44,601 nucleotides of DNA from Christensenellaceae bacterium (GTDB lineage Bacteria > Bacillota > Clostridia > Christensenellales > Borkfalkiaceae), in NCBI GenBank assembly GCA_045535775.1, contig JAZSMG010000253.1, forward strand, positions 1-44,601. Direction: 5' to 3'. Made by a program: the position numbers and the translations under genes. Each line of letters starts with the position of its first letter. Within the stretch, counting starts at the first letter, position 1. Below, one piece after another: positions 4,560-44,601 of the stretch. A model generated the notes under the pieces. That model saw nothing but the letters and a program-made list of their open reading frames with translations. It was not told the DNA's origin and did not search any database.

Positions 4560-4686
4560 TGACTAAAAAGGTTTAAGTTATTGCAAAACGCGGGCTTAAT
4601 TTTAACGGTTTACAAGTAAACAAAAAAACAATTTATCTTGTGGGGTTTTTTAAATAAATTCCAATCAAATAAAACAAAAAAGTGCC

Positions 4687-4702
4687 GTATAAGGCGATTA
4701 AC
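4687..4702 (-). repeat. intergenic motif copy (minus strand reads GTTAATCGCCTTATAC)
   Basis: The plus strand reads GTATAAGGCGATTAAC. It ends 8 nt upstream of the GGAGG RBS of the LRR gene. Confidence 0.8.
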
Positions 4703-4721
4703 AACACTTTGGAGGTGTGTT

Positions 4722-7700
4722 ATGAAAAAAATATTGACGTTATTACTGGTTATAATTACACTTTTTTCAGCCTTCATTTTTGCTTCTTGTGAAGATGATT
4801 CTACCAGTGGTTTACCTTTACCTAGCGATACAACGGTAGAAGAACTTTTTAAAAACGTTAACATGAAAGAGGTTTACTCTATTTACGTTGACTATGCAGA
4901 AGAAATGGATGAAGAGGTTTTATCCTTTGAAGAGTGGTTTACACTTGTTAAAGGCGAAGAATTTGAAAAGGGTATAATTCCCGAAATTCAAAAGAATTTA
5001 AGTAGCGATTTTTGGGAAATATCATATAACAACGGCAAGGGCTGGAACTCTTTACGTTTTAAAACTGAAACGGAAGAACAAAAAAACTGTAAGCACGCCT
5101 TTAAAAAATGGATTACCTTATTGGATCACAACGAATTTTTTAACGGTATTCGTTACAGAGAGTGTAAGCGCTGTAATTATAAAGAGTATGACTTTAAGTT
5201 AAAGCATAAATTTGAAATAGAGGAAATTCCTTCTACTTGCATTGAGCATGGTTATATAAAATATATCTGTAATGAAAAGGGTTGTGATTATAGTTATACG
5301 GAAGAGCTTCCCTTAGCAGAGCATACCTTTGAAGGCGGTGTTTGCAGTGTTTGCGGTGAAGGAAGCGGTGAAGGAGGCGGTGAAGAATTAGGGCATACGC
5401 CTTATGAATACTTTATATTCACACTTTTAGATGATGAAACCTATTCCATTGCAGCAAACGAGCCTTTTAATTTACCGGATGAGTTGGTTTTACCCTCAAC
5501 TTATATGGGTAAGCCCGTTACCGTTATTGAGAGTGAAGGCTTTGCTCAATCATTTATTAAAAAAGTAATTGTATCCGATAGCGTAATAAGAATTAAAGAA
5601 AGAGCTTTTTACAACTGTTTAGAACTTAGTACGATTGATATTCCCGATAATGTTTTAACAGTTGAAGCTGAATCATTTGGATTGTGTGAAAATTTATCTT
5701 CAATTTCAATTGGTGATGGCGTAATACATATTGGTGTTGATGCCTTTTTGGGTTGCGACTCACTTATTACCACTGAAGAAAATAACATAAAGTATTTAAG
5801 TTTAGAAGAAAATCCATATTTTTATGCCTTAAGCGTGGTAAAAACGGATATTGGAACCGTTCAGATCAATGAAAATTGCAAATTCTTAGGAAATGGTATA
5901 TTTGCAGGTTGTGATAATATAGTTTCAGTGGAAATTCCTGATTCAGTTATTTCTTTAGGCTCTGCTTCATTTTCTGTTTGTAGCAGTCTTGAAAGTGTTA
6001 AATTCGGTGAAAACACTCAGCTTAAATCAATTGATAGATATGCATTTGTGGGATGTAAAAAGCTAAGTGATATTGTTCTTCCTAATAGTGTTATTTATAT
6101 CGGTGCAACGGCATTTGAAGATTGTGATTCGTTAAATTCTTTTAAGTTACCGGATTCGCTTTTAATGATTTGCGAAAGAGCGTTTTGGGATTGTGATTCA
6201 CTCACTGAAGTGGTTATTAGCAAGGATAGTCAAATGAAACGTTTTGGAACTCAAGCATTTGCTCTTTGCTCTTCGCTTGAAAGTATAATCATTCCATTGG
6301 GTGTAGAAGTAATTGAGCCCAATGTGTTCGAATATTGCGACTCGCTAACCATTTTCTGTGAAGCAAAAAGTCAGCCGGAAAGATGGAATAAACAATGGAA
6401 TATAAGCAATCGCCCTGTTTATTGGTACAGTGAAACAGAACCCACCCAAGAGGGTAATTTCTGGCATTATGTAGACGGCGTGCCTACCATTTGGAATAAC
6501 AGTATTGAAGATAACGTAGAAACTTCTAGCGAATATTTCACTTTTACTTTACTAGAAGATGATACTTATTCAATTTCTGCAAAAGACGCTAGCAATATGC
6601 CTGCCAAAGTAGTTATTCCCTCTACCTATGAAGGTAAGGCAGTTACGGTTATTGCAGATGATGCGTTTAGAGATAGTGATTCAATAGTCGGCATTAAAAT
6701 ACCAGAGTCTATTACCTCTATTGGTGATTACGCCTTTTACGGTTGTAAATTATTGCGAAGCATTAAAGTTCCCAATTTAGTCACCACCGTTGGATCTTAT
6801 GCGTTTGCAAGATGTTCATTGTTAACAGAGATTCGTTTTGGCGCTTCAGTTGCGTACATTGGCTATGATCATTTTGAATATTGTGACTTGCTTGAAAGCA
6901 TAGAAGTAGATGAAAACAATCAAAATTATAAATCAATAGATGGGAACGTATACAGTAAAGATGGAAAAACTATAGTTCAGTATGCACGGGGAAAGATTCA
7001 AACGTCGTTTGAAATTCCAGAAGGAGTTGTAACCATCGGTGGTTCTGCGTTTGAAAGATGTAAGTTATTAAAAGAAATAGTAATTCCAAACACTGTTAAA
7101 ACTATTACTTGGAAAGCCTTTCAAGATTGCATTTCTTTAGAAAAAATAGATCTTCCAAATTCTATTGAAATTATTGAATGGAGAGCTTTTTATAATTGTG
7201 ATTCGTTAACAGAAATAGAAATTCCTAATTCTACGTGGCGGCTTGGTGAATATACTTTTTATGGTTGTGATTCATTACTTCGTGTAATGATTCCTGCGTC
7301 CTTAGCGTATATTCAAGATAAGGTGTTTAATCAATGTATATCACTTGTTAGTATAGAAGTAGATGAAAACAATCAAAATTACAAATCAATTGACGGTAAT
7401 TTATATACTAACGACGGTCAAGTGTTAATACAATATGCAATTGGAAAAAAACAAACCTCATTTACCATTCCCAATACGGTTACTCAAATAAAATATAGTG
7501 CATTTGAAAACTGTGATTCATTAAAAGAGATTATAATTCCCGATAGCGTAACTACCATTGGTCAATATGCGTTTAGTGGCTGTGATTCACTAATTAGTAT
7601 TATAATTCCAAAATCTGTTATTTCGATGGGAATGCACATTGTTGATAACTTTGTTGCACCGGTTGTTTATTGTGAAGCAGAAAATCAGCCCACTGGCTGG

Positions 7701-8852
7701 AATAGCAGTTGGAATGATAATTGCAGTGTTGTTTGGGATTGCAACAATAATGACGTTGCAGATGACGGTTGCATTTACCCGATTATTGATGGTGTTCGTT
7801 ATCTTATAAAAGAAGATCACGCTTCTGTTGTGAAACAATCAAAAACCATAGAAAAAGCACATATCAAATCAAGTATAGCGTATAACGGCAACGCGTATCC
7901 TGTTACAACTATTGATGACTGGGCATTTTATTCTTGTACTTTGCTTAATGAGGTAGAGATTCCTCATTCTGTAACTTCTATTGGCATAGCGGCATTTTAT
8001 AATTGTAGAATGCTAACAGAAATTATTATACCTATATCGGTCACAAATATAGCTGCAACAGCTTTTTCCGATTATGGTTTTACCATATATTGTGAAGCGG
8101 AAACTCAACCCATTGGATGGCAAGACGGTTGGAATTCTTCTAGTGATACTGTTTGGGATTGTAATAATAATAACAGTTCGGAATATGGTTGCGTTTGCGC
8201 GGTTATAGGTGGAATTAGATATGGATTATCAGGTGGCAATGCAAGGTTAATTCGTCAGCCAATAGGCACAGAGAACGTAGTTATACCATCAAGCATTACC
8301 TATGAGGGTAGTGAGTACCCGGTTGTTTCTATTGACAACTATGCGTTTTATAATAATGATAAATTAAAAAGTGTTAAAATCCCAAGTTCAATTACTTTTA
8401 TTGGCGAAAACGCTTTTTCGCAGTGTGGGTTACTTGCAAATATTGAAGTTGATGAAAACAATCAGCATTATAAAACAATTGACGGCAATTTATATAGTAA
8501 AGATGAAACTGTTTTAATTCAATATGCCATAGGTAAAAAAGAGTCAATATTTACTATTCCTCAAGGCGTTGTAGTTGTTGATTTACGGGCATTTTGCGAA
8601 GCTGTTTCATTAATAGAAATAATAATTCCAAATTCAGTTACAACTATAAGGAATAATGCAATTACCGGTTGCATTCTGTTACGTAAAATTATTATTCCTA
8701 AATCCGTTGAAAATATTGACGCATATGCGATTGGTGATTGTGATTTGCTTGCTATTTATTGCGAGGCATCAAGTAAGTTAACTGGTTGGAATAGCGATTG
8801 GAATTATGAAAACCGCCCCGTTGAGTGGGGATATAAATCTGAAAGCAGATAA
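4722..8852 (+). CDS. giant BspA-like leucine-rich-repeat (LRR_5 type) surface lipoprotein
   Basis: A GGAGG RBS precedes the ATG at 4722, and the signal peptide ends FASC. Many I/V-x-IP-x-SV-x-x-IG-x-x-AF-x-x-C units are present, with recurring IEVDENNQNYKSIDGNLY blocks. The N-terminal region is Cys-rich. Confidence 0.85.
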   Translation: MKKILTLLLVIITLFSAFIFASCEDDSTSGLPLPSDTTVEELFKNVNMKEVYSIYVDYAEEMDEEVLSFEEWFTLVKGEEFEKGIIPEIQKNLSSDFWEISYNNGKGWNSLRFKTETEEQKNCKHAFKKWITLLDHNEFFNGIRYRECKRCNYKEYDFKLKHKFEIEEIPSTCIEHGYIKYICNEKGCDYSYTEELPLAEHTFEGGVCSVCGEGSGEGGGEELGHTPYEYFIFTLLDDETYSIAANEPFNLPDELVLPSTYMGKPVTVIESEGFAQSFIKKVIVSDSVIRIKERAFYNCLELSTIDIPDNVLTVEAESFGLCENLSSISIGDGVIHIGVDAFLGCDSLITTEENNIKYLSLEENPYFYALSVVKTDIGTVQINENCKFLGNGIFAGCDNIVSVEIPDSVISLGSASFSVCSSLESVKFGENTQLKSIDRYAFVGCKKLSDIVLPNSVIYIGATAFEDCDSLNSFKLPDSLLMICERAFWDCDSLTEVVISKDSQMKRFGTQAFALCSSLESIIIPLGVEVIEPNVFEYCDSLTIFCEAKSQPERWNKQWNISNRPVYWYSETEPTQEGNFWHYVDGVPTIWNNSIEDNVETSSEYFTFTLLEDDTYSISAKDASNMPAKVVIPSTYEGKAVTVIADDAFRDSDSIVGIKIPESITSIGDYAFYGCKLLRSIKVPNLVTTVGSYAFARCSLLTEIRFGASVAYIGYDHFEYCDLLESIEVDENNQNYKSIDGNVYSKDGKTIVQYARGKIQTSFEIPEGVVTIGGSAFERCKLLKEIVIPNTVKTITWKAFQDCISLEKIDLPNSIEIIEWRAFYNCDSLTEIEIPNSTWRLGEYTFYGCDSLLRVMIPASLAYIQDKVFNQCISLVSIEVDENNQNYKSIDGNLYTNDGQVLIQYAIGKKQTSFTIPNTVTQIKYSAFENCDSLKEIIIPDSVTTIGQYAFSGCDSLISIIIPKSVISMGMHIVDNFVAPVVYCEAENQPTGWNSSWNDNCSVVWDCNNNDVADDGCIYPIIDGVRYLIKEDHASVVKQSKTIEKAHIKSSIAYNGNAYPVTTIDDWAFYSCTLLNEVEIPHSVTSIGIAAFYNCRMLTEIIIPISVTNIAATAFSDYGFTIYCEAETQPIGWQDGWNSSSDTVWDCNNNNSSEYGCVCAVIGGIRYGLSGGNARLIRQPIGTENVVIPSSITYEGSEYPVVSIDNYAFYNNDKLKSVKIPSSITFIGENAFSQCGLLANIEVDENNQHYKTIDGNLYSKDETVLIQYAIGKKESIFTIPQGVVVVDLRAFCEAVSLIEIIIPNSVTTIRNNAITGCILLRKIIIPKSVENIDAYAIGDCDLLAIYCEASSKLTGWNSDWNYENRPVEWGYKSESR

Positions 8853-9859: not shown

Positions 9860-11158
9860 TTAGTCTTCTTTATTATCCTCTTCTTCAACGGGATTTATAA
9901 CAACCTTAACGTCTAAAACCCTTCTTTGGGTTAACTTGTTAGTTATAATGGTAAGGTTTTTATAATCAAAGCTGTCAAATTTTTTGGGGAACGTACCCGT
10001 TTGTTCAATAATCCAACCGCTAACCGTTTGAGTTTCAAACTCTTTATCGTCACCGTCTAAGCCGAATAGGGTAAAGAACTTATCAAGCTCTGCTCTACCG
10101 TCTACCATATAGGTTAAGTCGTCTATTTTGGTGAAGTAGTTTACAATTTCATCGTGCTCGTCCCAAATTTCGCCAACAAGCTCCTCTAAAATATCTTCTA
10201 GGGTAGCAATGCCAAGCGTTCCGCCGTACTCATCCACAACTATAGCCATGTGTACCTTTTGCTTTTGCATGCTCTTAAGCAGGGTGGAAATCTTCATATG
10301 CTCGGTTGCGTAAGCAACGGGCGAAATAGCGTTTTTAATGGTTGTGTCGCCCCTTTCTAACGCGGCAAAGAAGTCAATGTTGTGAATCATACCAACTATT
10401 GAATCTATTGTTCCTTTATAAACGGGCATACGTGAGAAATTGTATTCAAGGAAAAGCTTTTTTATCTGTTCCATAGGCATATCAAGCGAAACGGCAATCA
10501 CGCCCACTCTGGGAACAAAAATATCCTCTACTAAAACGTCGTCAAACTCAATAGAGCTTGAAATAAGCTTGGTTTCGTTCTCATTAAGCGCGCCGTCCTC
10601 TTGTGCTTCTTCAACGATGGTAAGCAATTCTTCTTCAGTAATTTTTTCTTCCCCTTCAAGCTTAAATATCTTTTTAAGTAAAGTCTTAAGCCCTGCAAAA
10701 ATAAAGGTTATGGGCCATAAAATTATCATAAAGAATTTTATGGGGTAGCCTAAAACTATGGTAGCACCATAGCTCTTTTCTTTTGCTATCATTTTGGGGG
10801 TAATTTCACCGAATATCAATACTAAAACGGTGGTTACTGCCGTAGAAACCGTTGCTGCAACGTTCGTGTTACCGCTTAATATCTGTTCAAAAATAATTAA
10901 GCATAAGCTTGATAAGGTAATATTAACGATATTGTTACCAACTAAAATAGTGGAAAGAACCTTATCGAAGTTTTCAGTTAAGTCAAGCGCTTGCTTTGCG
11001 CCCTTGTGGCCCTCTTGCGCCTTCGTGCGAAGCTTGGTTTTGTTAACTGATGAAAACGCAGTTTCGGTTGCAGAAAAGAATGCAGATAAGATGATTAGTA
11101 TTACGCATATAAAAATATGTAAGGTAATACTGTCGGGTTCAGGTTCGTCAGAATCCAT
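9860..11158 (-). CDS. CNNM/DUF21-CBS-CorC_HlyC family membrane protein (hemolysin-family / divalent-ion efflux type)
   Basis: It has four N-terminal TM helices, a CBS-pair region and a C-terminal CorC/HlyC-like domain. A GGAGAAAAA RBS favours the ATG at 11158 over the ORF-track start at 11209. Confidence 0.8.
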
Positions 11159-11394
11159 TTTTTCTCCTTTTTTATTAGGGATTTGCCTCTTTTTTCTTGC
11201 AATCCCCAAAATTATTGTTTCTAGATTATACCATAAAAATACTTTAATGTAAACAAAAAAACACTCAATTATAGCCTTTTTCCATTTTTAACCCACTTTT
11301 AACGTTTTTTTTGCAATTTTGTGTTAAAATTAGGCAAATTAAATACTTTTTACCTTTTTATTTGTATAAATATTTGCTTTCCAACATAAAATAT

Positions 11395-29511: not shown

Positions 29512-30918
29512 TTAAAGTATAAAATAGTTTATTATTAAGGAAACTATGCCGTAATAGGTTAATGCGGAAACCAAGTCGCTTGCAGTAGTTATTAGCGGAC
29601 CGGATGCCGCCGCAGGGTCTACCCCCATCTTTTTAAATAAAATGGGAACGGCGCAACCGCAAAAGCCGGAAACTGTCATAGAGCAAACCAAGGCAATCGC
29701 AATACACGCAGAAAGGGTAAAGGACCTATCTAAGGGCATATCTTTAAAGAAGTAAACGTATGCGCCAAGTAGCGCAAAGCTTATTATAGCCAAGAAAATT
29801 CCGTTAATAAAGGCAAGGCTTATTTCGTTTGCAAACATTCGCCTTATCTTTTTGCGCTGGGTCGCTTCGGGTAAATTCCTAATAGTAACGCCAAGCGCTT
29901 GAGTGCCTGTATTACCGCTCATACCAAGAATCATTGGTTGGAAGAACGCAAGCAAGGGTAGCATTGCAACAACGTGGTCAAATATGCCTATCAATGCAGA
30001 TACGCCAAGGCTTAAGCAAAGCAAGATTAAAAGCCAGGGAAGCCTTGCTTTAAGGCTTAAAAGTAAGCTGTTTTTTTCTTCAGTATAAGAAGAAATACCT
30101 GCTAGTTTAGAATAGTCTTCCTTTAACTCGTTTTCCGTTGCTTCAACCAAGATAGCGTCCGTAAGTGCGCCTATAAGGCGATTATCGTTATCTACAACGG
30201 GCAAAGAATCTTCAGAATAGTCTTGCAAACTCTCTAAAACGTCTGCAATTTTTAAATTTGCGTTAAAGCAGGGGTAAGATGTTGCTATAATATCTTCAAG
30301 CGGGGTATTAGCTCTTGCAATAAATAAATCTTTAAGCTGAATAGCGCCGTAGTAGCAATCCTTTTCGTCCGTTACGTAAATGGTGGTTATGTTATTACAG
30401 CTTTCTGCTTGAGCAATTAAGCTGTTCATGGCTTCCTTAACGCTAAAGGTGTTCTTTATGCTTACGAAGTCGTTAGTAATAATACTACCAAGGCAGTCCT
30501 CTTCGTAGGTGGCAATAAGTTCAACGTCTTTTGCAACCTCTTCATCAAGTAACTCTATAACCTCTTTTTGCTTTTCTTCATCTAACTCTTCTAACACGTC
30601 AACCGCGTCGGCAGAGTCCATTTCCTCAATAATGTCTGCAACCTTTTGGTTAGATAGTTCATCTACAAACTCTGCGGGGTTATCTAAGTATGCAAATATA
30701 TCAGAAAGCTCTTCGTTAGAAAGAACGGTGTAAAGTCTAAGTCTTTGATCCTTGGGTATTTCGGGTAAGATATCCGCAATATCCTTAGCGTGGTAGTCAG
30801 AAAGCTTTTCGCGCAATTTTTCTGCGTGGTAGCCTGCGTTTATAATTTGCATTAACTGGCTTTCTCTTATCTTTTGCGGATCGTTTTCATTTGGCAAAAG
30901 AAAATCCTTTTCTTCCAT
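29512..30918 (-). CDS. mgtE: magnesium transporter MgtE (paralogue 1)
   Basis: It has the MgtE N-domain, a CBS pair and a TM domain with MSGNTGTQ. An AAGGAGG RBS supports the ATG at 30918. Confidence 0.9.
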   Translation of the reverse strand: MEEKDFLLPNENDPQKIRESQLMQIINAGYHAEKLREKLSDYHAKDIADILPEIPKDQRLRLYTVLSNEELSDIFAYLDNPAEFVDELSNQKVADIIEEMDSADAVDVLEELDEEKQKEVIELLDEEVAKDVELIATYEEDCLGSIITNDFVSIKNTFSVKEAMNSLIAQAESCNNITTIYVTDEKDCYYGAIQLKDLFIARANTPLEDIIATSYPCFNANLKIADVLESLQDYSEDSLPVVDNDNRLIGALTDAILVEATENELKEDYSKLAGISSYTEEKNSLLLSLKARLPWLLILLCLSLGVSALIGIFDHVVAMLPLLAFFQPMILGMSGNTGTQALGVTIRNLPEATQRKKIRRMFANEISLAFINGIFLAIISFALLGAYVYFFKDMPLDRSFTLSACIAIALVCSMTVSGFCGCAVPILFKKMGVDPAAASGPLITTASDLVSALTYYGIVSLIINYFIL

Positions 30919-30984
30919 TGCGAATACCTCCTTTTGATGATATGCACGCTTTCGCGTGATGATATGCAACCTTGCGGTTGGTGG
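30919..30984 (-). promoter_or_regulatory. conserved mgtE leader (copy 1)
   Basis: The minus strand reads CCACCAACCGCAAGGTTGCATATCATCA-CGCGAAAGCGTG-CATATCATCAAAAGGAGG. Confidence 0.6.
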
Positions 30985-30995
30985 TAAAAGTAGGG

Positions 30996-31011
30996 CTATA
31001 GGTCGATTATC
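30996..31011 (-). repeat. intergenic motif copy (minus strand reads GATAATCGACCTATAG followed by CCCTACTTTT)
   Basis: The plus strand reads CTATAGGTCGATTATC. It lies between the two mgtE genes. Confidence 0.8.
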
Positions 31012-31026
31012 TATAGTTTTTTACTG

Positions 31027-32430
31027 TTAAATAAGTAGCATTAGAGCAAAACCGTAATATACCGTTATTGCTATAAGGTCATTTAAGGTAGTAATTAAAG
31101 GGCCGGATGCAACCGCAGGGTCAACCTTTAATTTGTTTAAGGTAATGGGAATAAGAGCGCCCGTTAAAGAAGCAACCGTGGTAGAAATTAACATTGCTAG
31201 GCCCACGGCAAATCCCGTTTGTAAATCTGTTGTAAACGAGCCTGTTGCGCTGGTTAAGTATGCGTAAAGGGTAACTGCGGTAAATGAAATAAGCCCTGTG
31301 ATTAAGCCTATAAATAAGCCTACCTTTACTTCGTTAAATAAAAACTCGCGCTGTTTTTTGCCGTCGTCTGAATAATCGGAAAGCAGGTTGACCGCAGAAG
31401 CCAGCGTTTGGGTGCCTGTGTTACCACTCATACCTGAAACAAGCTGTTGGAAGCTTACTAAGAAAGGCAAGCCAATAACAACCGCTTCAAAAATGCCAAT
31501 ATACATACCTATAAAAAGGTCCAAAACAAGCAACACAACAAGCCAAGGCAATCTTTTTAACGCGCCGGAAAAAATCTGTTTTCTTTCAAGCGCTTCCTCT
31601 AAATCCTCTTCTGTAAGACCAACTAGTTTTGCATAGTCTTCCGTTAACTCTTCATCTAACGCTTCTAAGGTGTCTGCACTGGTAAGTGCGCCTATAAGGC
31701 GATTATCGTTATCTAAAATGGGTAAAGTGGGCTCTGAATACTCTCTTACGTCCCACACACTTTCCTCTACCGTTGCACTTGCGTATAGGAAAGGAAAGGA
31801 TTTTATTATAATCTCTTCTAACGGTGTATCTGCACGTGCAATAACTAAATCTCTTAATCTAATTGCACCCAAGTAGATGCCGTTTTCATCGGTAACGAAT
31901 ATTGTGGAAATGTTATCCATTTCGCCTGCTTGGTGAATAACACTGCGCGTTGCTTTTTTAACGGTGAGGGTGTTTTGTATACTAACGAAGTCGTTTGTCA
32001 TACGGCTACCGATTAGCTCGTCCGGGTAAGCGGAAATAAGCTCAACCTCTTTTGCAACCTCTTCGTCCAAAAGCTCTATAACTTCTTTTTGCTTTTCTTC
32101 ATCTAAGTCCTCTAAGATGTCAACCGCATCGTCAGAGTCCATTTCCTCAATAATATCCGCCACGCGCTCGTTAGAAAGTTCTTCTATAAAGTCCGCAGGG
32201 TTTTCTAGGTGGGTGAATATATCAGAAAGGCGCTCGTCGCTTAACGCCTTGTAAAGAATAAGCCTTTGCTTTTTATCTAAAAGGGGAATAGCGCGCGCAA
32301 TATCGTAATCGTGGTAATCGTAAAGAAGCTCTGCAATTTCGCTTTGCTTTGCGCTTTGAATAATTGCTATAATTTCCGCAATAAAATCGGGTGATTTAAT
32401 TTCTAATTCTTCATTAAAATCCTTATTCAC
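31027..32430 (-). CDS. mgtE: magnesium transporter MgtE (paralogue 2, GTG start)
   Basis: Same architecture as paralogue 1. The segment VADIIEEMDS.DAVD.LE.LDEEKQKEVIELLDEEVAK is near-identical between them. A GGAGGA RBS is present. Confidence 0.9.
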   Translation of the reverse strand: MNKDFNEELEIKSPDFIAEIIAIIQSAKQSEIAELLYDYHDYDIARAIPLLDKKQRLILYKALSDERLSDIFTHLENPADFIEELSNERVADIIEEMDSDDAVDILEDLDEEKQKEVIELLDEEVAKEVELISAYPDELIGSRMTNDFVSIQNTLTVKKATRSVIHQAGEMDNISTIFVTDENGIYLGAIRLRDLVIARADTPLEEIIIKSFPFLYASATVEESVWDVREYSEPTLPILDNDNRLIGALTSADTLEALDEELTEDYAKLVGLTEEDLEEALERKQIFSGALKRLPWLVVLLVLDLFIGMYIGIFEAVVIGLPFLVSFQQLVSGMSGNTGTQTLASAVNLLSDYSDDGKKQREFLFNEVKVGLFIGLITGLISFTAVTLYAYLTSATGSFTTDLQTGFAVGLAMLISTTVASLTGALIPITLNKLKVDPAVASGPLITTLNDLIAITVYYGFALMLLI

Positions 32431-32505
32431 GCTAAATCCTCCTTGTTTTGATGCAAGCCGACGGCTTGATGATATACAACCTTGCGGTTGGTGATACTAA
32501 TTATA
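32431..32505 (-). promoter_or_regulatory. conserved mgtE leader (copy 2) with putative -10 TATAAT
   Basis: The minus strand reads TATAAT-tagtat-CACCAACCGCAAGGTTGTATATCATCA-AGCCGTCGGCTT-GCATCAAAACAAGGAGG. Confidence 0.6.
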
Positions 32506-32518
32506 TGCTTAATAGCCA

Positions 32519-32550
32519 ATAAAAAAAGCATCCGCAAAAAACGGATGCTT
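32519..32550 (-). terminator. rho-independent terminator
   Basis: Stem AAGCATCCG / CGGATGCTT, with T7 following on the minus strand. Confidence 0.8.
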
Positions 32551-32763
32551 AAAAAACACTATAATACACAGCGCCCAAAAATATGGGTGCAATTGCAATT
32601 TATAATGAAAATAATTCCGTTTAAAATAAATATATTCTGTTTTTAAAATTTAATTTTGTTACTGCGTTAAAGAAATTAAAACTTTCCGCAGGGGGCTCTG
32701 TTGAGTTTTTCATAACGTATTTGCTATCCTTTGTGAATGATTGAAAGGTTATTAAAGTAAATG

Positions 32764-33786
32764 TTAGTATTTATGTGTGAAAGATTTTAAAGTATAAACC
32801 AAATTACCTGCAGAAAAGGCAAGCTGACTTTGCATTTTTACTAAAATTCTGCGGTAAGTTGCTTGGTCAACCGTATAGTATAGGTCAATGCTACTGCCAG
32901 AGAAGGTATTTGCAATAGAAAGCTTAACGTTGTAAACGGTAAGTTCAGTTTCATCTGGAGTTTGACCGGTGGGAACGGTAAACTTTTGAAGCTTTACCGT
33001 TGAAGTGGGGTTGGTTGAATCAAGTGATAAATACATTTTTTGTATCTTGTTATCCAATGCGCTCAACGTGTAAAAATAAGAGCTAAAGCCGTTTTCACCA
33101 AGGTCGGAAGCGCGTGGGATAAAGAATAGACTTTCGTTATCGAAGAAAATACCTTCCTTTGCGTAATCTTCAATTTTAACACCCTCTTTATTGGGAACCT
33201 TAAAGCCTTCGGTTGCCTTTTCACCGCAAGTAAGGTCAATAATAGCACTGCCTTCTTCGCGGTTATACGTGGTTTTAAGTGTATATTCCATCGTGCCGAA
33301 CGAAGCGTTTCCACCTAAAGAGGTTGCAATACTGGGCACGGTAGAAAGTAAATATTTTTCGCTGTATAATGGGGTAAGATTATCTGCAATACCAAGGAAG
33401 TAAACGGCAGAAGTAGCCACGTCGTTAACGGTTGCTCTGACGTCTGTTGTGTAAACGTATTCACCGGTCAAAGAAAGGCTTGTAGAGAACTTATAGCAGG
33501 CAGTTCCTTGGTAGCTTGACTTTTCTAAGCGAGTAGTTAACGTGCCACTAATATCTGCAGTTAAGTAGTTATTAGAAGTATCTTCCGGAACTATAGGTTC
33601 AAAGCTAATTTCGTAAACACATTCTTCAAGCACGTCACCAACGCCGGTTTCATCAAGGTTCTTTAGCCAATTGGATTTATGAACCAAATTAGTGCTTACC
33701 GCAGGCTGACCGCTGCCAAAGCATGCAGATGAAAATAGTGTTGTTAAAGTTAGAATAAAAATTAAAGCGCTTTTAAAAAATTTCAT
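32764..33786 (-). CDS. hypothetical lipoprotein
   Basis: The signal peptide has a lipobox (FSSAC). I recognise no family. Confidence 0.65.
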   Translation of the reverse strand: MKFFKSALIFILTLTTLFSSACFGSGQPAVSTNLVHKSNWLKNLDETGVGDVLEECVYEISFEPIVPEDTSNNYLTADISGTLTTRLEKSSYQGTACYKFSTSLSLTGEYVYTTDVRATVNDVATSAVYFLGIADNLTPLYSEKYLLSTVPSIATSLGGNASFGTMEYTLKTTYNREEGSAIIDLTCGEKATEGFKVPNKEGVKIEDYAKEGIFFDNESLFFIPRASDLGENGFSSYFYTLSALDNKIQKMYLSLDSTNPTSTVKLQKFTVPTGQTPDETELTVYNVKLSIANTFSGSSIDLYYTVDQATYRRILVKMQSQLAFSAGNLVYTLKSFTHKY

Positions 33787-34078: not shown

Positions 34079-34810
34079 ATGTCAGAAGAAAAAAGAAAAA
34101 AAGGCATAAAGCCCGGTCAAAGAAGAACGTGGTTTAAGTGCGTAAAAGCCATTTTAAAATTATTCATAAAAAAACCACGCTTCGTATTCCTTGGGGAGGA
34201 ATTTGTTGACTGTTGCTTGGTTTTAAGCAATCACGTTGGGGCAAGCGCGCCTTTAACGCTGGAATGCCATTTTCCAAAGCCCTTTAGATTTTGGGGTACT
34301 TACGAAATGAACTCTTCCTTAAAGGAAGTTTACAAGTATTTATCAGAAATTTATTTTCACCAAAAAAAGCATTGGAAGCTATTCTGGTCAAAGCTGTTTT
34401 GTATAATTGCCGCGCCCGTGGCTTATTTATTTTATCGCGGGCTAACCCTTATTTCTACCTATCGCGATCACAGGTTTAGAAATACTTTAAAAGAAAGCAT
34501 CAGAACAATAGAAGCAGGCGCAAGCTTGGTCATCTTCCCGGAAGATTCTTCAAAGGGTTACTTCAGTACCATAACCGGCTTCTTTTCCGGTTTTGTTACC
34601 TTGGCGCACGTATGCTATAAAAAAGGCTATGATCTTCCCATTTACTTAAGCTATTTACGTAAAAAAGATAAGGTGTATATCGTAGATAAGCCAATCCGTT
34701 ATAGTGAGCTTATGGAAAGCGGGTTAGATAAATACCAAATTGCAGAAGAGCTTCGCCAAAAATGCAACGCGTTAGGCGAAATGGAAATTCCTGCAGAAGT
34801 TGCCAAATAG
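34079..34810 (+). CDS. acyltransferase-like protein (LPLAT/PlsC-like, HX4D not intact)
   Basis: LSNHVGASAP occupies the position of NHxxxxD, with Ala where Asp is expected. VIFPEDSSKG resembles the FPEGT block. A GGAGA RBS is present. Confidence 0.5.
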   Translation: MSEEKRKKGIKPGQRRTWFKCVKAILKLFIKKPRFVFLGEEFVDCCLVLSNHVGASAPLTLECHFPKPFRFWGTYEMNSSLKEVYKYLSEIYFHQKKHWKLFWSKLFCIIAAPVAYLFYRGLTLISTYRDHRFRNTLKESIRTIEAGASLVIFPEDSSKGYFSTITGFFSGFVTLAHVCYKKGYDLPIYLSYLRKKDKVYIVDKPIRYSELMESGLDKYQIAEELRQKCNALGEMEIPAEVAK

Positions 34811-42391: not shown

Positions 42392-42955
42392 ATGAGCAAG
42401 GCAATAGGAATAAAAATTACCAAGGCAGGCGATTTTTACGACGTAGGCGCAAGTAAGTTTTTTGGTGCGCCAACCATTCCGGGCGAGTGGTTAGATGATA
42501 GATTTACCCAAGATGAAATATTTTTTTGCCAAATAAGGCTTTCTGATATTGCAAAGATTGATAGTGAAAACAGGCTTCCCCACGAAGGCTATTTATACTT
42601 TTTCTTGCGCACCGCAAACGGAAAATATGCACTAGAGGCAGTGATTCGTGATTGTTTGGAAAAACCAAGGGTTGCAGTTGATAGGTTTAACGAATGTGTG
42701 GAAGGGTACGAGCATTTAGTTGATGACTACCTAATAGAATTTTTTGAGGTAGATGAGGATTATGAGGGAACTAAACTATTTGGCACACCCTCTTCTTGGC
42801 AGTATGCAGAAAATCCCCCCAAGCTTTTGTTGCAGTTTGATCCACTTGATACGGATGCCGGCTTTTTAAGCGAGGTTGATGGGTATTTATACTTTTTCCT
42901 TGGGGAGGACGAATTGGATTTATCGCAAGTAAAAGCGCATTTGGAGCATAGCTAA
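42392..42955 (+). CDS. DUF1963/YwqG-like protein
   Basis: KFFGAPTIPGEW, FFCQIRLSD and LPHEGYLYFF follow the DUF1963 pattern. An AGAGGTG RBS is present. Confidence 0.65.
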   Translation: MSKAIGIKITKAGDFYDVGASKFFGAPTIPGEWLDDRFTQDEIFFCQIRLSDIAKIDSENRLPHEGYLYFFLRTANGKYALEAVIRDCLEKPRVAVDRFNECVEGYEHLVDDYLIEFFEVDEDYEGTKLFGTPSSWQYAENPPKLLLQFDPLDTDAGFLSEVDGYLYFFLGEDELDLSQVKAHLEHS

Positions 42956-43380: not shown

Positions 43381-44601
43381 ATGAAAAAAGTAGCGCTATT
43401 ACTGTTGGCAATCGTTTTTGCCTTTATGCTTTTCTCATGTGCAGCACCCGGTGCAGGTGAAAGTGGAGTAACTATAGATCCCGGTCACGAGCACGTTTAC
43501 GATGGTGAATTACAGTATAATGCAACCTCTCACTTCCGCAGATGTAGTTGTGGTAAGGCTGGCATTTCTGAATCTCACGTGGATGAAAATAAAGATGGCT
43601 TTTGTGACGTTTGCGTTTTTGGTTTAGAGGTTATTACCTGTGAACACCAATGGGTTGAATACTGTGATCAAAATAAAACCTGTGCTATTTGCGGTGGTTG
43701 GCAATGGGATAGTATTCGTGGGCACCTTTATGAAGCGGTTGTAACTGCGCCTACTTGTAAGGATGAAGGTTTTACCACTCATACCTGTTCATATTGCGGT
43801 GACGTTTATACCGATACTCCTGTTCCCGCTTTAGGGCACACCCCTGTTGCAGATAGTGCTGTTGCTCCCGATTGTGTAAACACCGGTTTAACGGAAGGCT
43901 CTCACTGCTCGGTTTGTGAAGAGGTAATAGTAGCACAAGAGGTTGTTCCTGCATTAGGTCATACTTGGGTAGCGGCTACTTGTAATGATCCTGCAACCTG
44001 TGGCGTTTGTGGCGAAACAACAGGTGAGGCTATCGGTCACGATGAAGTTGTACACGAAGCAAAAGCTGCTACTTGTACCGCAATTGGTTGGGAAGTATAC
44101 GTAACTTGCTCTCGTTGTGATTACAGCACTTACGAAGAAATCCCTGCATTAGGTCATACTGAAGGTACGGTTGTAGTTGAAAATAACGTAGCGCCCGATT
44201 GTGTAAGCGATGGCTCTTATGATAACGTTGTTTACTGTACCGTTTGTAACGAAGAACTAAGCAGAGAAACTGTTACCGTTGACGCTTTAGGTCATACTGA
44301 AGGTACGGTTGTAGTTGAAAACAACGTAGCGCCCGATTGTGTAAACGCTGGCTCTTACGATAACGTTGTTTATTGTACCGTTTGCGGTGAAGAGTTAAGT
44401 AGAAAAACTGTTACTGTTGATGCTTTAGGTCATACTGAAGGTACGGTTGTAGTTGAAAATAACGTAGATCCTGATTGTGTAAGCGCTGGCTCTTATGATA
44501 ACGTTGTTTACTGTACCGTTTGTAACGAAGAACTAAGCAGAGAAACTGTTACCGTTAACGCATTAGGTCATAAGCCTGGCGCGGAAGCAACTTGTACCAC
44601 C
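43381..44601 (+). CDS. Cys-rich repeat surface lipoprotein (partial, runs off the window)
   Basis: Absent from the ORF track because no stop is reached. An AAGGAG RBS is present and the signal peptide ends LFSC. The open frame covers 407 codons, with recurring ALGH...C...G......C..C modules. Confidence 0.8.
   Translation, partial: MKKVALLLLAIVFAFMLFSCAAPGAGESGVTIDPGHEHVYDGELQYNATSHFRRCSCGKAGISESHVDENKDGFCDVCVFGLEVITCEHQWVEYCDQNKTCAICGGWQWDSIRGHLYEAVVTAPTCKDEGFTTHTCSYCGDVYTDTPVPALGHTPVADSAVAPDCVNTGLTEGSHCSVCEEVIVAQEVVPALGHTWVAATCNDPATCGVCGETTGEAIGHDEVVHEAKAATCTAIGWEVYVTCSRCDYSTYEEIPALGHTEGTVVVENNVAPDCVSDGSYDNVVYCTVCNEELSRETVTVDALGHTEGTVVVENNVAPDCVNAGSYDNVVYCTVCGEELSRKTVTVDALGHTEGTVVVENNVDPDCVSAGSYDNVVYCTVCNEELSRETVTVNALGHKPGAEATCTT
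44146..44559 (+). repeat. three near-identical 138 nt (46 codon) coding tandem repeats
   Basis: GC(A/T)TTAGGTCATACTGAAGG recurs at 44146, 44284 and 44422. A fourth, diverging unit starts at 44560. Confidence 0.9.

Follow-up and report, generated by a model that had tools for sequence, protein, structure and literature searches.

In Firmicutes, the M-box (ykoK, RF00380) is located upstream of mgtE and contains a Mg2+-binding core. Bacterial intergenic regions also harbor families of short repeats with the potential to fold. REP/BIME elements of enterobacteria and pseudomonads are short, clustered intergenic hairpins that are present in both orientations, often after genes or terminators or within operons, and that act as mRNA stabilizers and recombination substrates. 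BOX elements of Streptococcus pneumoniae (boxA-(boxB)n-boxC) and MIRU-type variable-number tandem repeats are modular intergenic repeats whose internal unit number varies by strain. Repeats of the BOX and MIRU type are predicted to fold and are sometimes located in 5´ untranslated regions (UTRs), where they alter the expression of their neighbors (PMC3184786). Here we analyze a 44,601-nt stretch of DNA from a Christensenellaceae bacterium (contig JAZSMG010000253.1, hereafter the window), the minus strand of which encodes a tandem pair of MgtE transporter genes, mgtE_up followed by mgtE_dn. The leaders of these genes were originally predicted, from the sequence alone, to contain a structured cis-regulatory RNA that is distinct from the M-box, conserved since the gene duplication and dedicated to Mg2+ uptake. 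Our data indicate that both leaders are likely to be short arrays of a dispersed, oriented, and copy-number-variable family of mini-hairpin tandem repeats.

Hairpin units in the two mgtE leaders

The two leaders share the 27-mer CACCAACCGCAAGGTTGYATATCATCA, which occurs exactly twice (32467-32493(-) and 30957-30983(-)) and which, with 3 mismatches permitted, was matched in none of 100 shuffles, with 0 matches expected by chance. This agrees with the near-identical block of 27-28 nt described in the original prediction. The first hairpin was also correctly described as shared, and a second hairpin follows it in each leader (Table 1). All four hairpins, of 5-6 bp, are present in the minimum-free-energy folds, and the folding energies of the leaders are unremarkable (z of -0.5 and -1.7). 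Both leaders are periodic, each being composed of two 22-nt units that start at 32490 and 32468 in the mgtE_up leader and at 30980 and 30958 in the mgtE_dn leader. The unit, of ~22 nt, consists of a mini-hairpin (CA-stem-G..A loop-stem-TG) followed by an 8-nt linker, YATRTMAY. The hairpin has 5-7 bp with a CA...TG closure, a variable inner stem and a GCA, GAA, GCAA, or GAAA loop. The decamer CATATCATCA, which had been noted 3´ of both hairpins in the mgtE_dn leader, was found in these positions. The second hairpin differs between the leaders with its pairing kept, as had been claimed, but this is not a compensatory change, as the two hairpins are different unit types from a shared pool and one is not a mutated copy of the other. 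We built a covariance model (R1) from 15 units; with its filters off, it matched only the two mgtE leaders in the 44.6-kb window.

The shared block could have been a simple extension of the similarity between the duplicated coding sequences, a caveat attached to the original prediction. MgtE_up and MgtE_dn share 49% protein identity and their first ~17 codons cannot be aligned. In-register patches of the coding sequences are 1521 nt apart while the leader blocks are 1510 nt apart. This difference in spacing, together with the unalignable N-terminal codons that lie in between, shows that the leader block is not such an extension. Within the coding sequences, two pairs of patches, 30161-30223 versus 31682-31744 and 30405-30704 versus 31926-32225, have an unusually high nucleotide identity, with a 33-nt identical run in one and 76% identity over 300 nt in another, which suggests gene conversion or strong local constraint.

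The TATAAT box noted 6 nt upstream of the block in the mgtE_up leader is indeed present. It was not among the sites returned by a consensus promoter scan, and relatives retain this -10-like box as CATAWAAT whether or not they have arrays. The array of the mgtE_dn leader sits just 3´ of the conserved block TAATCGAC-TATAGCC. Between the two genes, the block ATAATCGACCTATAGCCCTACTT is kept in the array-less relatives L002, L072, and partly L076 (down to 67-81% identity), and may be an internal promoter or other signal for mgtE_dn. In the mgtE_up leader the array is positioned between the -10-like box and the Shine-Dalgarno (SD) sequence, and in the mgtE_dn leader it comes shortly after a conserved block; each mgtE mRNA would therefore probably have its array at the 5´ extremity. 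A terminator scan revealed no terminator-like site between mgtE_up and mgtE_dn, nor in either leader. The leaders also contain no CCUCC anti-SD sequence, and weak pairing between the last linker and the SD is found in the mgtE_dn leader only. Thus, as the leaders lack a terminator and share no conserved anti-SD, no expression platform is evident.

The claim that the leaders are not M-boxes was borne out. In Rfam searches, neither the M-box nor any other family matched the window at its gathering score, no family matched the leaders at E<=10, and no array was matched when the window and 19 loci were scanned at the gathering thresholds. As a positive control, the M-box model scored 140 and 147 bits at the mgtE loci L033 and L037 from other Firmicutes. 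The architectures differ as well; the M-box is a three-helix aptamer of ~160 nt with a platform, while the leaders are ~65 nt in length and contain two separate, independent hairpins of 5-6 bp and no terminator. Weak matches to Hrs13, MicF, and RyhB at 32520-32619 correspond to the terminator of the upstream gene and were discarded. Two other classes were considered and rejected. ANTAR two-hairpin substrates have hexaloops with A at position 1 and G at position 4 and overlap a terminator, while the loops here are 3-4 nt and there is no terminator. CRISPR arrays have repeats of 23-50 nt and unique spacers of similar length, along with cas genes, while the joint conserved here is 12 nt and the inserts are palindromes of 10-18 nt; moreover, Pfam searches of 27 window open reading frames (ORFs) revealed no cas domain and no transposase. 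The window also encodes a CNNM/CorC-type protein, a putative Mg2+/Co2+ efflux system (9860-11209 (-)). The leader of this gene (11160-11300) has a TATAAT box and a small hairpin of its own, with no M-box and no repeat unit.

Variation and distribution of the repeat units

Copy number varies among close relatives. In the six assemblies that encode MgtE at least 91% identical to that of the window (the window itself, L070, L090, L001, L071, and L188), the array before mgtE_up, or in L188 before mgtE_dn, contains 2, 2, 4, 7, at least 7, and 7 units, respectively. The L071 value (MgtE_up 91%) is a lower bound as the contig ends there. Before mgtE_dn, 2 units are found in the window, L090 (MgtE_up 95%), and L071, and 3-4 in L001 (96%). 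In L070 (96%), the 2 upstream units have differing loops and linker, and diverged units are located within a 560-nt spacer before mgtE_dn. Tandem Repeats Finder assigned a period of 22/44 to the L001 array. The head-to-tail arrangement of the units and the differences in their number between close strains are those of a variable-number tandem repeat. Among these units the stems vary (ACC/GGT, CGC/GCG, GTC/GAC, AGCC/GGCT, and AGGC/GTCT) while CA...TG and YATRTMAY are retained. One unit of L001 is chimeric, combining two unit types, and is unpaired. In L188 (ena:ERZ27317464:k141_1308693, 300-830), a 7-unit mosaic array comes after the promoter region of mgtE_up, and the ribosome-binding site and ATG of mgtE_dn follow this array directly; the strain also encodes an exact copy of a flanking window protein (42392-42955). 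It appears that mgtE_up was lost between the two directly repeated arrays. All six of these strains retain a sense-orientation array at mgtE.

The spacer between the two mgtE genes is not ~108 nt but 500-560 nt in L070 (3904-4464) and L072 (3904-4403). The enlarged spacers hold other small structured repeats, namely a palindromic element of the GTCATTCTGAGCGGAGC...GCTCAACATGAC type, as well as further hairpin units with an ATTTCAT linker. The intergenic spacer looks like a hotspot for repeat insertion.

More distant orthologous loci, eight in all, range from 81% to 59% identity: L072/73 (81%), L074 (72%), L002 (67%), L075 (66%), L076/77 (62%), and L078-80 (59%). Synteny is kept in all, and both paralogues are kept except in L078-80. 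Two genes that lack a Pfam match, a 340-aa gene (32764-33786 (-)) and a divergent 243-aa gene (34079-34810 (+)), retain synteny with the mgtE pair in every relative, including those at 59% identity. In tblastn searches the up and down orthologues separate cleanly (62-97% to their own type and 46-50% to the other), indicating that the mgtE duplication predates these lineages. Neither inspection by eye nor the R1 model at E<=1 revealed a unit in the leaders of these loci. Since distant loci that keep both paralogues lack units, the duplication is older than the repeat, and the repeats would be a later arrival within a narrow clade. Thus, the claim that the leaders were conserved since the gene duplication failed a test that had been set beforehand.

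We then searched a metagenome collection with a spacer-hairpin-spacer pattern and IMG/VR with a linker-pair pattern. The strict pattern gave 6 true loci in metagenome_contigs and ~8 in viral_contigs (4 distinct elements, as some contigs are near-duplicates); L081, L083, L086, L088/89, and most of the 93 viral pattern hits were unrelated simple repeats or chance matches. Arrays were found at unrelated intergenic sites and in both orientations relative to genes (L082, L084, L085, L091, L099, L155, L181, and L183). Their neighbors include PHP-domain, four-helix-bundle, hydrolase-like, and tRNA genes, among others, and the GC content of the array-bearing genomes is 36-53%. Hairpin potential is kept across the copies. 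These features, several unrelated contexts, both orientations and persistent hairpin potential, are those of a dispersed hairpin repeat. Some units are identical between loci: CAACCGCAAGGTTG is found in the window and L084, CACGCGAATGCGTG in L082, L084, and L085, and CCAAGCC-GCA-GGCTTGG in L091 and L183; L181 has a unit, TCAAGCC-GCA-GGCTTGG, that is almost the same. A blastn search with a 9-unit array against PLSDB plasmids and GenBank phages gave no match. Literature searches with the linker sequence returned unrelated primers only, and those on tandem hairpins and intergenic repeats revealed nothing equivalent, as was also the case for Rfam 15.

In L084 (=L087), 9 units with all stems different lie antisense in a 3´ UTR, downstream of the stop codon of a PHP-domain gene and upstream of its terminator. 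This array adjoins a second tandem repeat of ~45 nt (ATCCGCTTCATCACGCGAAGTGATCC...; L084:9700-9790 (-)), which contains a related ATCAC-GCGAA-GTGAT hairpin. Many arrays begin straight after the T run of a terminator, as TTTTTTAT plus a hairpin, and the mgtE_up array likewise starts just after one. L099 (=L114=L138) has 6 units next to a terminator-like hairpin. In other loci, a forward array, a short center, and a reverse-complement array form a composite (L082, L085, L091, L155=L180, L181, and L183). After most composites come GGATAAAAAA and an intrinsic terminator common to a convergent tRNA gene or tRNA (3´) fragment. L082 and L085 have a common array element of ~240 nt with differing left flanks. 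The L155 composite, folded as RNA, is very stable (z = -7.8), a stability that any inverted repeat gives; composites could be stand-alone RNA genes or DNA elements. A long-range helix between forward and reverse linkers was rejected, as the Y/R variants of the nested pairs do not co-vary by eye (L082, L085, L181, and L183). As several arrays lie near viral contig ends and tRNAs, integrase arm-type sites at prophage ends were considered and rejected; the terminator of the tRNA itself intervenes and the array resembles the host flank. Resemblances of the linker to cre/CcpA, PhoP-box, Ter, and Pumilio sites are partial and not reproducible across units.

Across the arrays, 43 different hairpins are located immediately 5´ of a linker and have a stem of 5 bp or longer. 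In the 14-nt class, of which 15 units were compared, standard pairing is found in 97.3% of cells compared to 78.9% when shuffled, with 0/500 shuffles reaching the observed value, and 12 cells are changed on both sides where 4.5 are expected. Shifting the 3´ partner by 1-3 columns reduced pairing to 15-43%. The view that the leaders are structured with maintained pairing is thus upheld. Compensatory change in palindromes can also arise without RNA selection, by intrastrand template switching (quasi-palindrome correction). Read in the direction given by the linker, the loop starts with G in 32/43 hairpins and ends with A in 37/43, the commonest loops being GCA (8), GCAA (6), GAA (4), and GAAA (3); the same bias is seen in reverse arrays once these are reverse-complemented. 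The non-Watson-Crick stem pairs comprise 3 G.T and 0 A.C. The loop bias and the occurrence of G.T but not A.C pairs indicate that the unit is an oriented module shaped for one single strand, RNA or single-stranded DNA. Loops of the G-N-A and G-N-N-A type that contain a sheared G.A pair are stable as RNA and as DNA. The conserved parts are CA...TG, the loop-closing C-G pair and the linker, while the stems are hypervariable. The conserved TG-linker-CA joint comprises 12 nt (UGYAURUMAUCA as RNA).

Two other repetitive or variable regions are present in the window. A 138-nt tandem repeat (3.1 copies, 88% identity) at 44149-44572 (+) reaches the window end and is probably a repeated domain of a large surface protein. 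The ORF at 4638-8852 (+), which follows a DUF6273 gene, encodes 1404 aa in the window, and its counterpart at L185:5259-11411 encodes 2050 aa (LRR_5 repeats) with otherwise identical neighboring proteins; by this comparison it is a second length-variable locus of the window.

Table 1 Positions of the mgtE genes, leader features, and composite arrays (window coordinates unless a locus is named)
Feature	Position	Strand	Details
mgtE_up coding sequence	31027..32430	(-)	467 aa, GTG start; domains MgtE_N, CBS, MgtE
mgtE_dn coding sequence	29512..30918	(-)	468 aa, ATG start; domains MgtE_N, CBS, MgtE
Intrinsic terminator of the 340-aa gene upstream of mgtE_up	32526..32550	(-)	strong; T run ~35 nt before array start
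TATAAT, -10-like box, putative promoter	32500..32505	(-)	6 nt before 27-nt block; no good -35
mgtE_up leader, unit 1 hairpin CAACC-GCAA-GGTTG	32477..32490	(-)	covariance-model match 32469-32496, E 2e-4
mgtE_up leader, linker TATATCAT	32469..32476	(-)	family consensus YATRTMAY
mgtE_up leader, unit 2 hairpin CAAGCC-GTC-GGCTTG	32454..32468	(-)	followed by CATCAAAACAA, then SD GGAGG 32438-32442
Block ATAATCGACCTATAGCCCTACTT between mgtE_up and mgtE_dn	30988..31010	(-)	outside hairpin repeat
mgtE_dn leader, unit 1 hairpin CAACC-GCAA-GGTTG	30967..30980	(-)	
mgtE_dn leader, first linker CATATCAT	30959..30966	(-)	
mgtE_dn leader, unit 2 hairpin CACGC-GAAA-GCGTG	30945..30958	(-)	covariance-model match 30937-30966, E 5e-8
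mgtE_dn leader, second linker CATATCAT	30937..30944	(-)	followed by CAAAA, then SD GGAGG 30927-30931
Composite arrays	L082:6990-7215; L085:5540-5760; L155:140-345; L181:548-760; L183:208-400; L091:1170-1450		

Proposed mechanism and alternative explanations

In the mechanism that we propose, the arrays would have recently entered, or grown in, both leaders in a narrow clade, long after the mgtE duplication. They would expand, contract, and swap units by slipped-strand mispairing and by recombination at the 12-nt TG-linker-CA joints. The arrays change by whole units and exchange them, which is consistent with slippage and recombination, and we counted the L001 chimeric unit and the L188 mosaic fusion as signs of recombination. 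The likeliest effect on mgtE would be generic, whereby a hairpin at the 5´ end could stabilize the mRNA and the C/A-rich unstructured stretch before the SD could aid translation. Both are known effects in other systems. Mg2+ sensing by the leaders is unlikely. The direct-repeat arrays that flank mgtE_up also appear to have led to its deletion in one strain. The repeat alters the length of the mgtE 5´ UTR several-fold between near-identical strains and may promote loss of one mgtE copy, and this would offer a simple way of varying the dosage of the Mg2+ transporters.

Several points weigh against this reading. Few loci were recovered from very large collections, so either the family is rare or most of its members deviate from the pattern. 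This organism was seen over ~50 kb, in which arrays are located only at the two mgtE genes, and the label dispersed therefore rests on other genomes. The retention of a sense array in all six close strains could perhaps reflect selection for a role at mgtE. Slippage alone does not fully explain the stem diversity combined with the fast turnover. Finally, the fusion in L188 could be an assembly mis-join across repeats.

A trans-acting factor for which the arrays provide a platform is a doubtful alternative. Here a protein would read the linker UGYAURUMAUCA on RNA or single-stranded DNA between the hairpins, in the manner of the GGA motifs displayed by CsrB/RsmZ, and the mgtE copies would have been co-opted to control both paralogues. 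Such a protein would fit the conservation of the linker over genomes of 36-53% GC while the stems vary, the G...A loops of an oriented module and the multivalent, regular spacing of the units, and both mgtE genes carry these in sense next to the SD. However, the flanks that were read revealed no co-occurring gene, a candidate protein was not found, some arrays are antisense or in apparently untranscribed positions, and copy number is unconstrained. We also entertain, as tentatively, that the arrays represent a new class of oriented multivalent element, in which hypervariable mini-hairpins present a 12-nt single-stranded motif to a protein on RNA or single-stranded DNA and which was co-opted to couple the expression or recombinational loss of both mgtE genes. 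If so, the forward/reverse composites at tRNA terminators would be stand-alone versions, for example sponge RNAs or origin- or transposon-like sites.

It is rather improbable that the units are the ends or remnants of a small non-autonomous mobile element that moves by a single-stranded DNA route (IS200/IS605- or REP/RAYT-like) or in another manner and prefers certain sites, for example those after terminators. The identical units in compositionally different genomes, the many arrays that start right after a terminator T run with TTTTTTAT and a hairpin, and the ~240-nt element with differing left flanks in L082 and L085 are as expected of such an element, as are the strand-specific hairpins with G...A loops. 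G...A loops are very stable in DNA. The mgtE intergenic spacers also gather other small repeats. By contrast, the arrays have no sharp boundaries, their edges fading into degenerate units, no target duplication was seen, and a transposase was not found in either the window or the flanks. Strains differ by whole units of 22 or 44 nt, as slippage predicts.

A dedicated cis-regulatory RNA as originally predicted, whether a small riboswitch for Mg2+ or another ligand or a thermometer-like element, conserved since the duplication and controlling mgtE, is very improbable. It would accord with the location of the leaders on the sense strand directly upstream of the SD in both paralogues, with the maintained pairing, with the retention of arrays at mgtE in six of six close strains and with a clade that lacks the M-box, in which other control is plausible. 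Yet the units are absent from orthologous leaders at 59-81% identity, and neither their number (2 to at least 7) nor their order is conserved. The same units are located at unrelated genes, in antisense or in 3´ UTRs, and thus mark no single gene family or regulon. In addition, the leaders have no terminator, SD pairing is weak, non-conserved, and confined to one leader, and the CNNM/CorC gene of the window lacks a unit. A perfect shared block and seemingly compensatory hairpins before two paralogues mimic a riboswitch, while here they belong to a young repeat; for annotation, checking the orthologous leaders tells the two apart. Hardly credible, lastly, is the idea that a DNA-binding regulator of mgtE recognizes the 12-bp linkers as double-stranded DNA, with these acting as operators or iterons spaced by two helical turns. 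The 22-bp period, the conserved 12-bp motif and its location between a -10-like box and the gene would fit. However, this idea leaves the compensatory palindromic inserts of 10-14 bp and the loop strand bias unexplained, arrays of as many as 9 sites are located in a 3´ UTR and next to tRNA terminators, and the motif is absent from orthologous promoters.

Comparison with known repeats and RNAs

The repeat family is most likely undescribed, being of the same kind as REP/BIME or BOX but a member of neither named family, as conservation is limited to CA...TG, the loop-closing C-G pair and the linker and does not extend to the stems. REP elements are palindromes of ~35-40 nt with a conserved sequence that alternate in orientation inside BIMEs. 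In the repeats at mgtE this logic is inverted, with hypervariable stems and a conserved single-stranded linker of 8-12 nt, and the units are arranged head-to-tail with a period of 22-25 nt and without a RAYT transposase in the window or flanks. BOX and MIRU units are 40-100 nt in length and conserved in sequence, lack the design of a hypervariable stem with a conserved linker, and have no sequence similarity to the units described here. PATEs have near-terminal palindromes and are not tandem arrays with variable stems (PMC3119063).

The arrays share with CRISPR a short conserved repeat that alternates with variable segments and a length that differs by strain. However, CRISPR has a period of 55-75 nt compared to 22 nt here, and the variable segments of our arrays are palindromes from a shared pool, with some arrays in convergent pairs. 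The sponge RNAs CsrB and RsmZ are also alike, as they too have numerous small hairpins that bear, or are separated by, copies of a short single-stranded motif, although their motif is GGA in place of UGYAURUMAUCA and many of the copies described here are not stand-alone RNA genes. In Rfam 15 and the literature searched, the design of the repeat, a conserved linker, hypervariable stems, G...A loops, and both direct and convergent arrays, has no match, and it spans compositionally diverse uncultured anaerobes.

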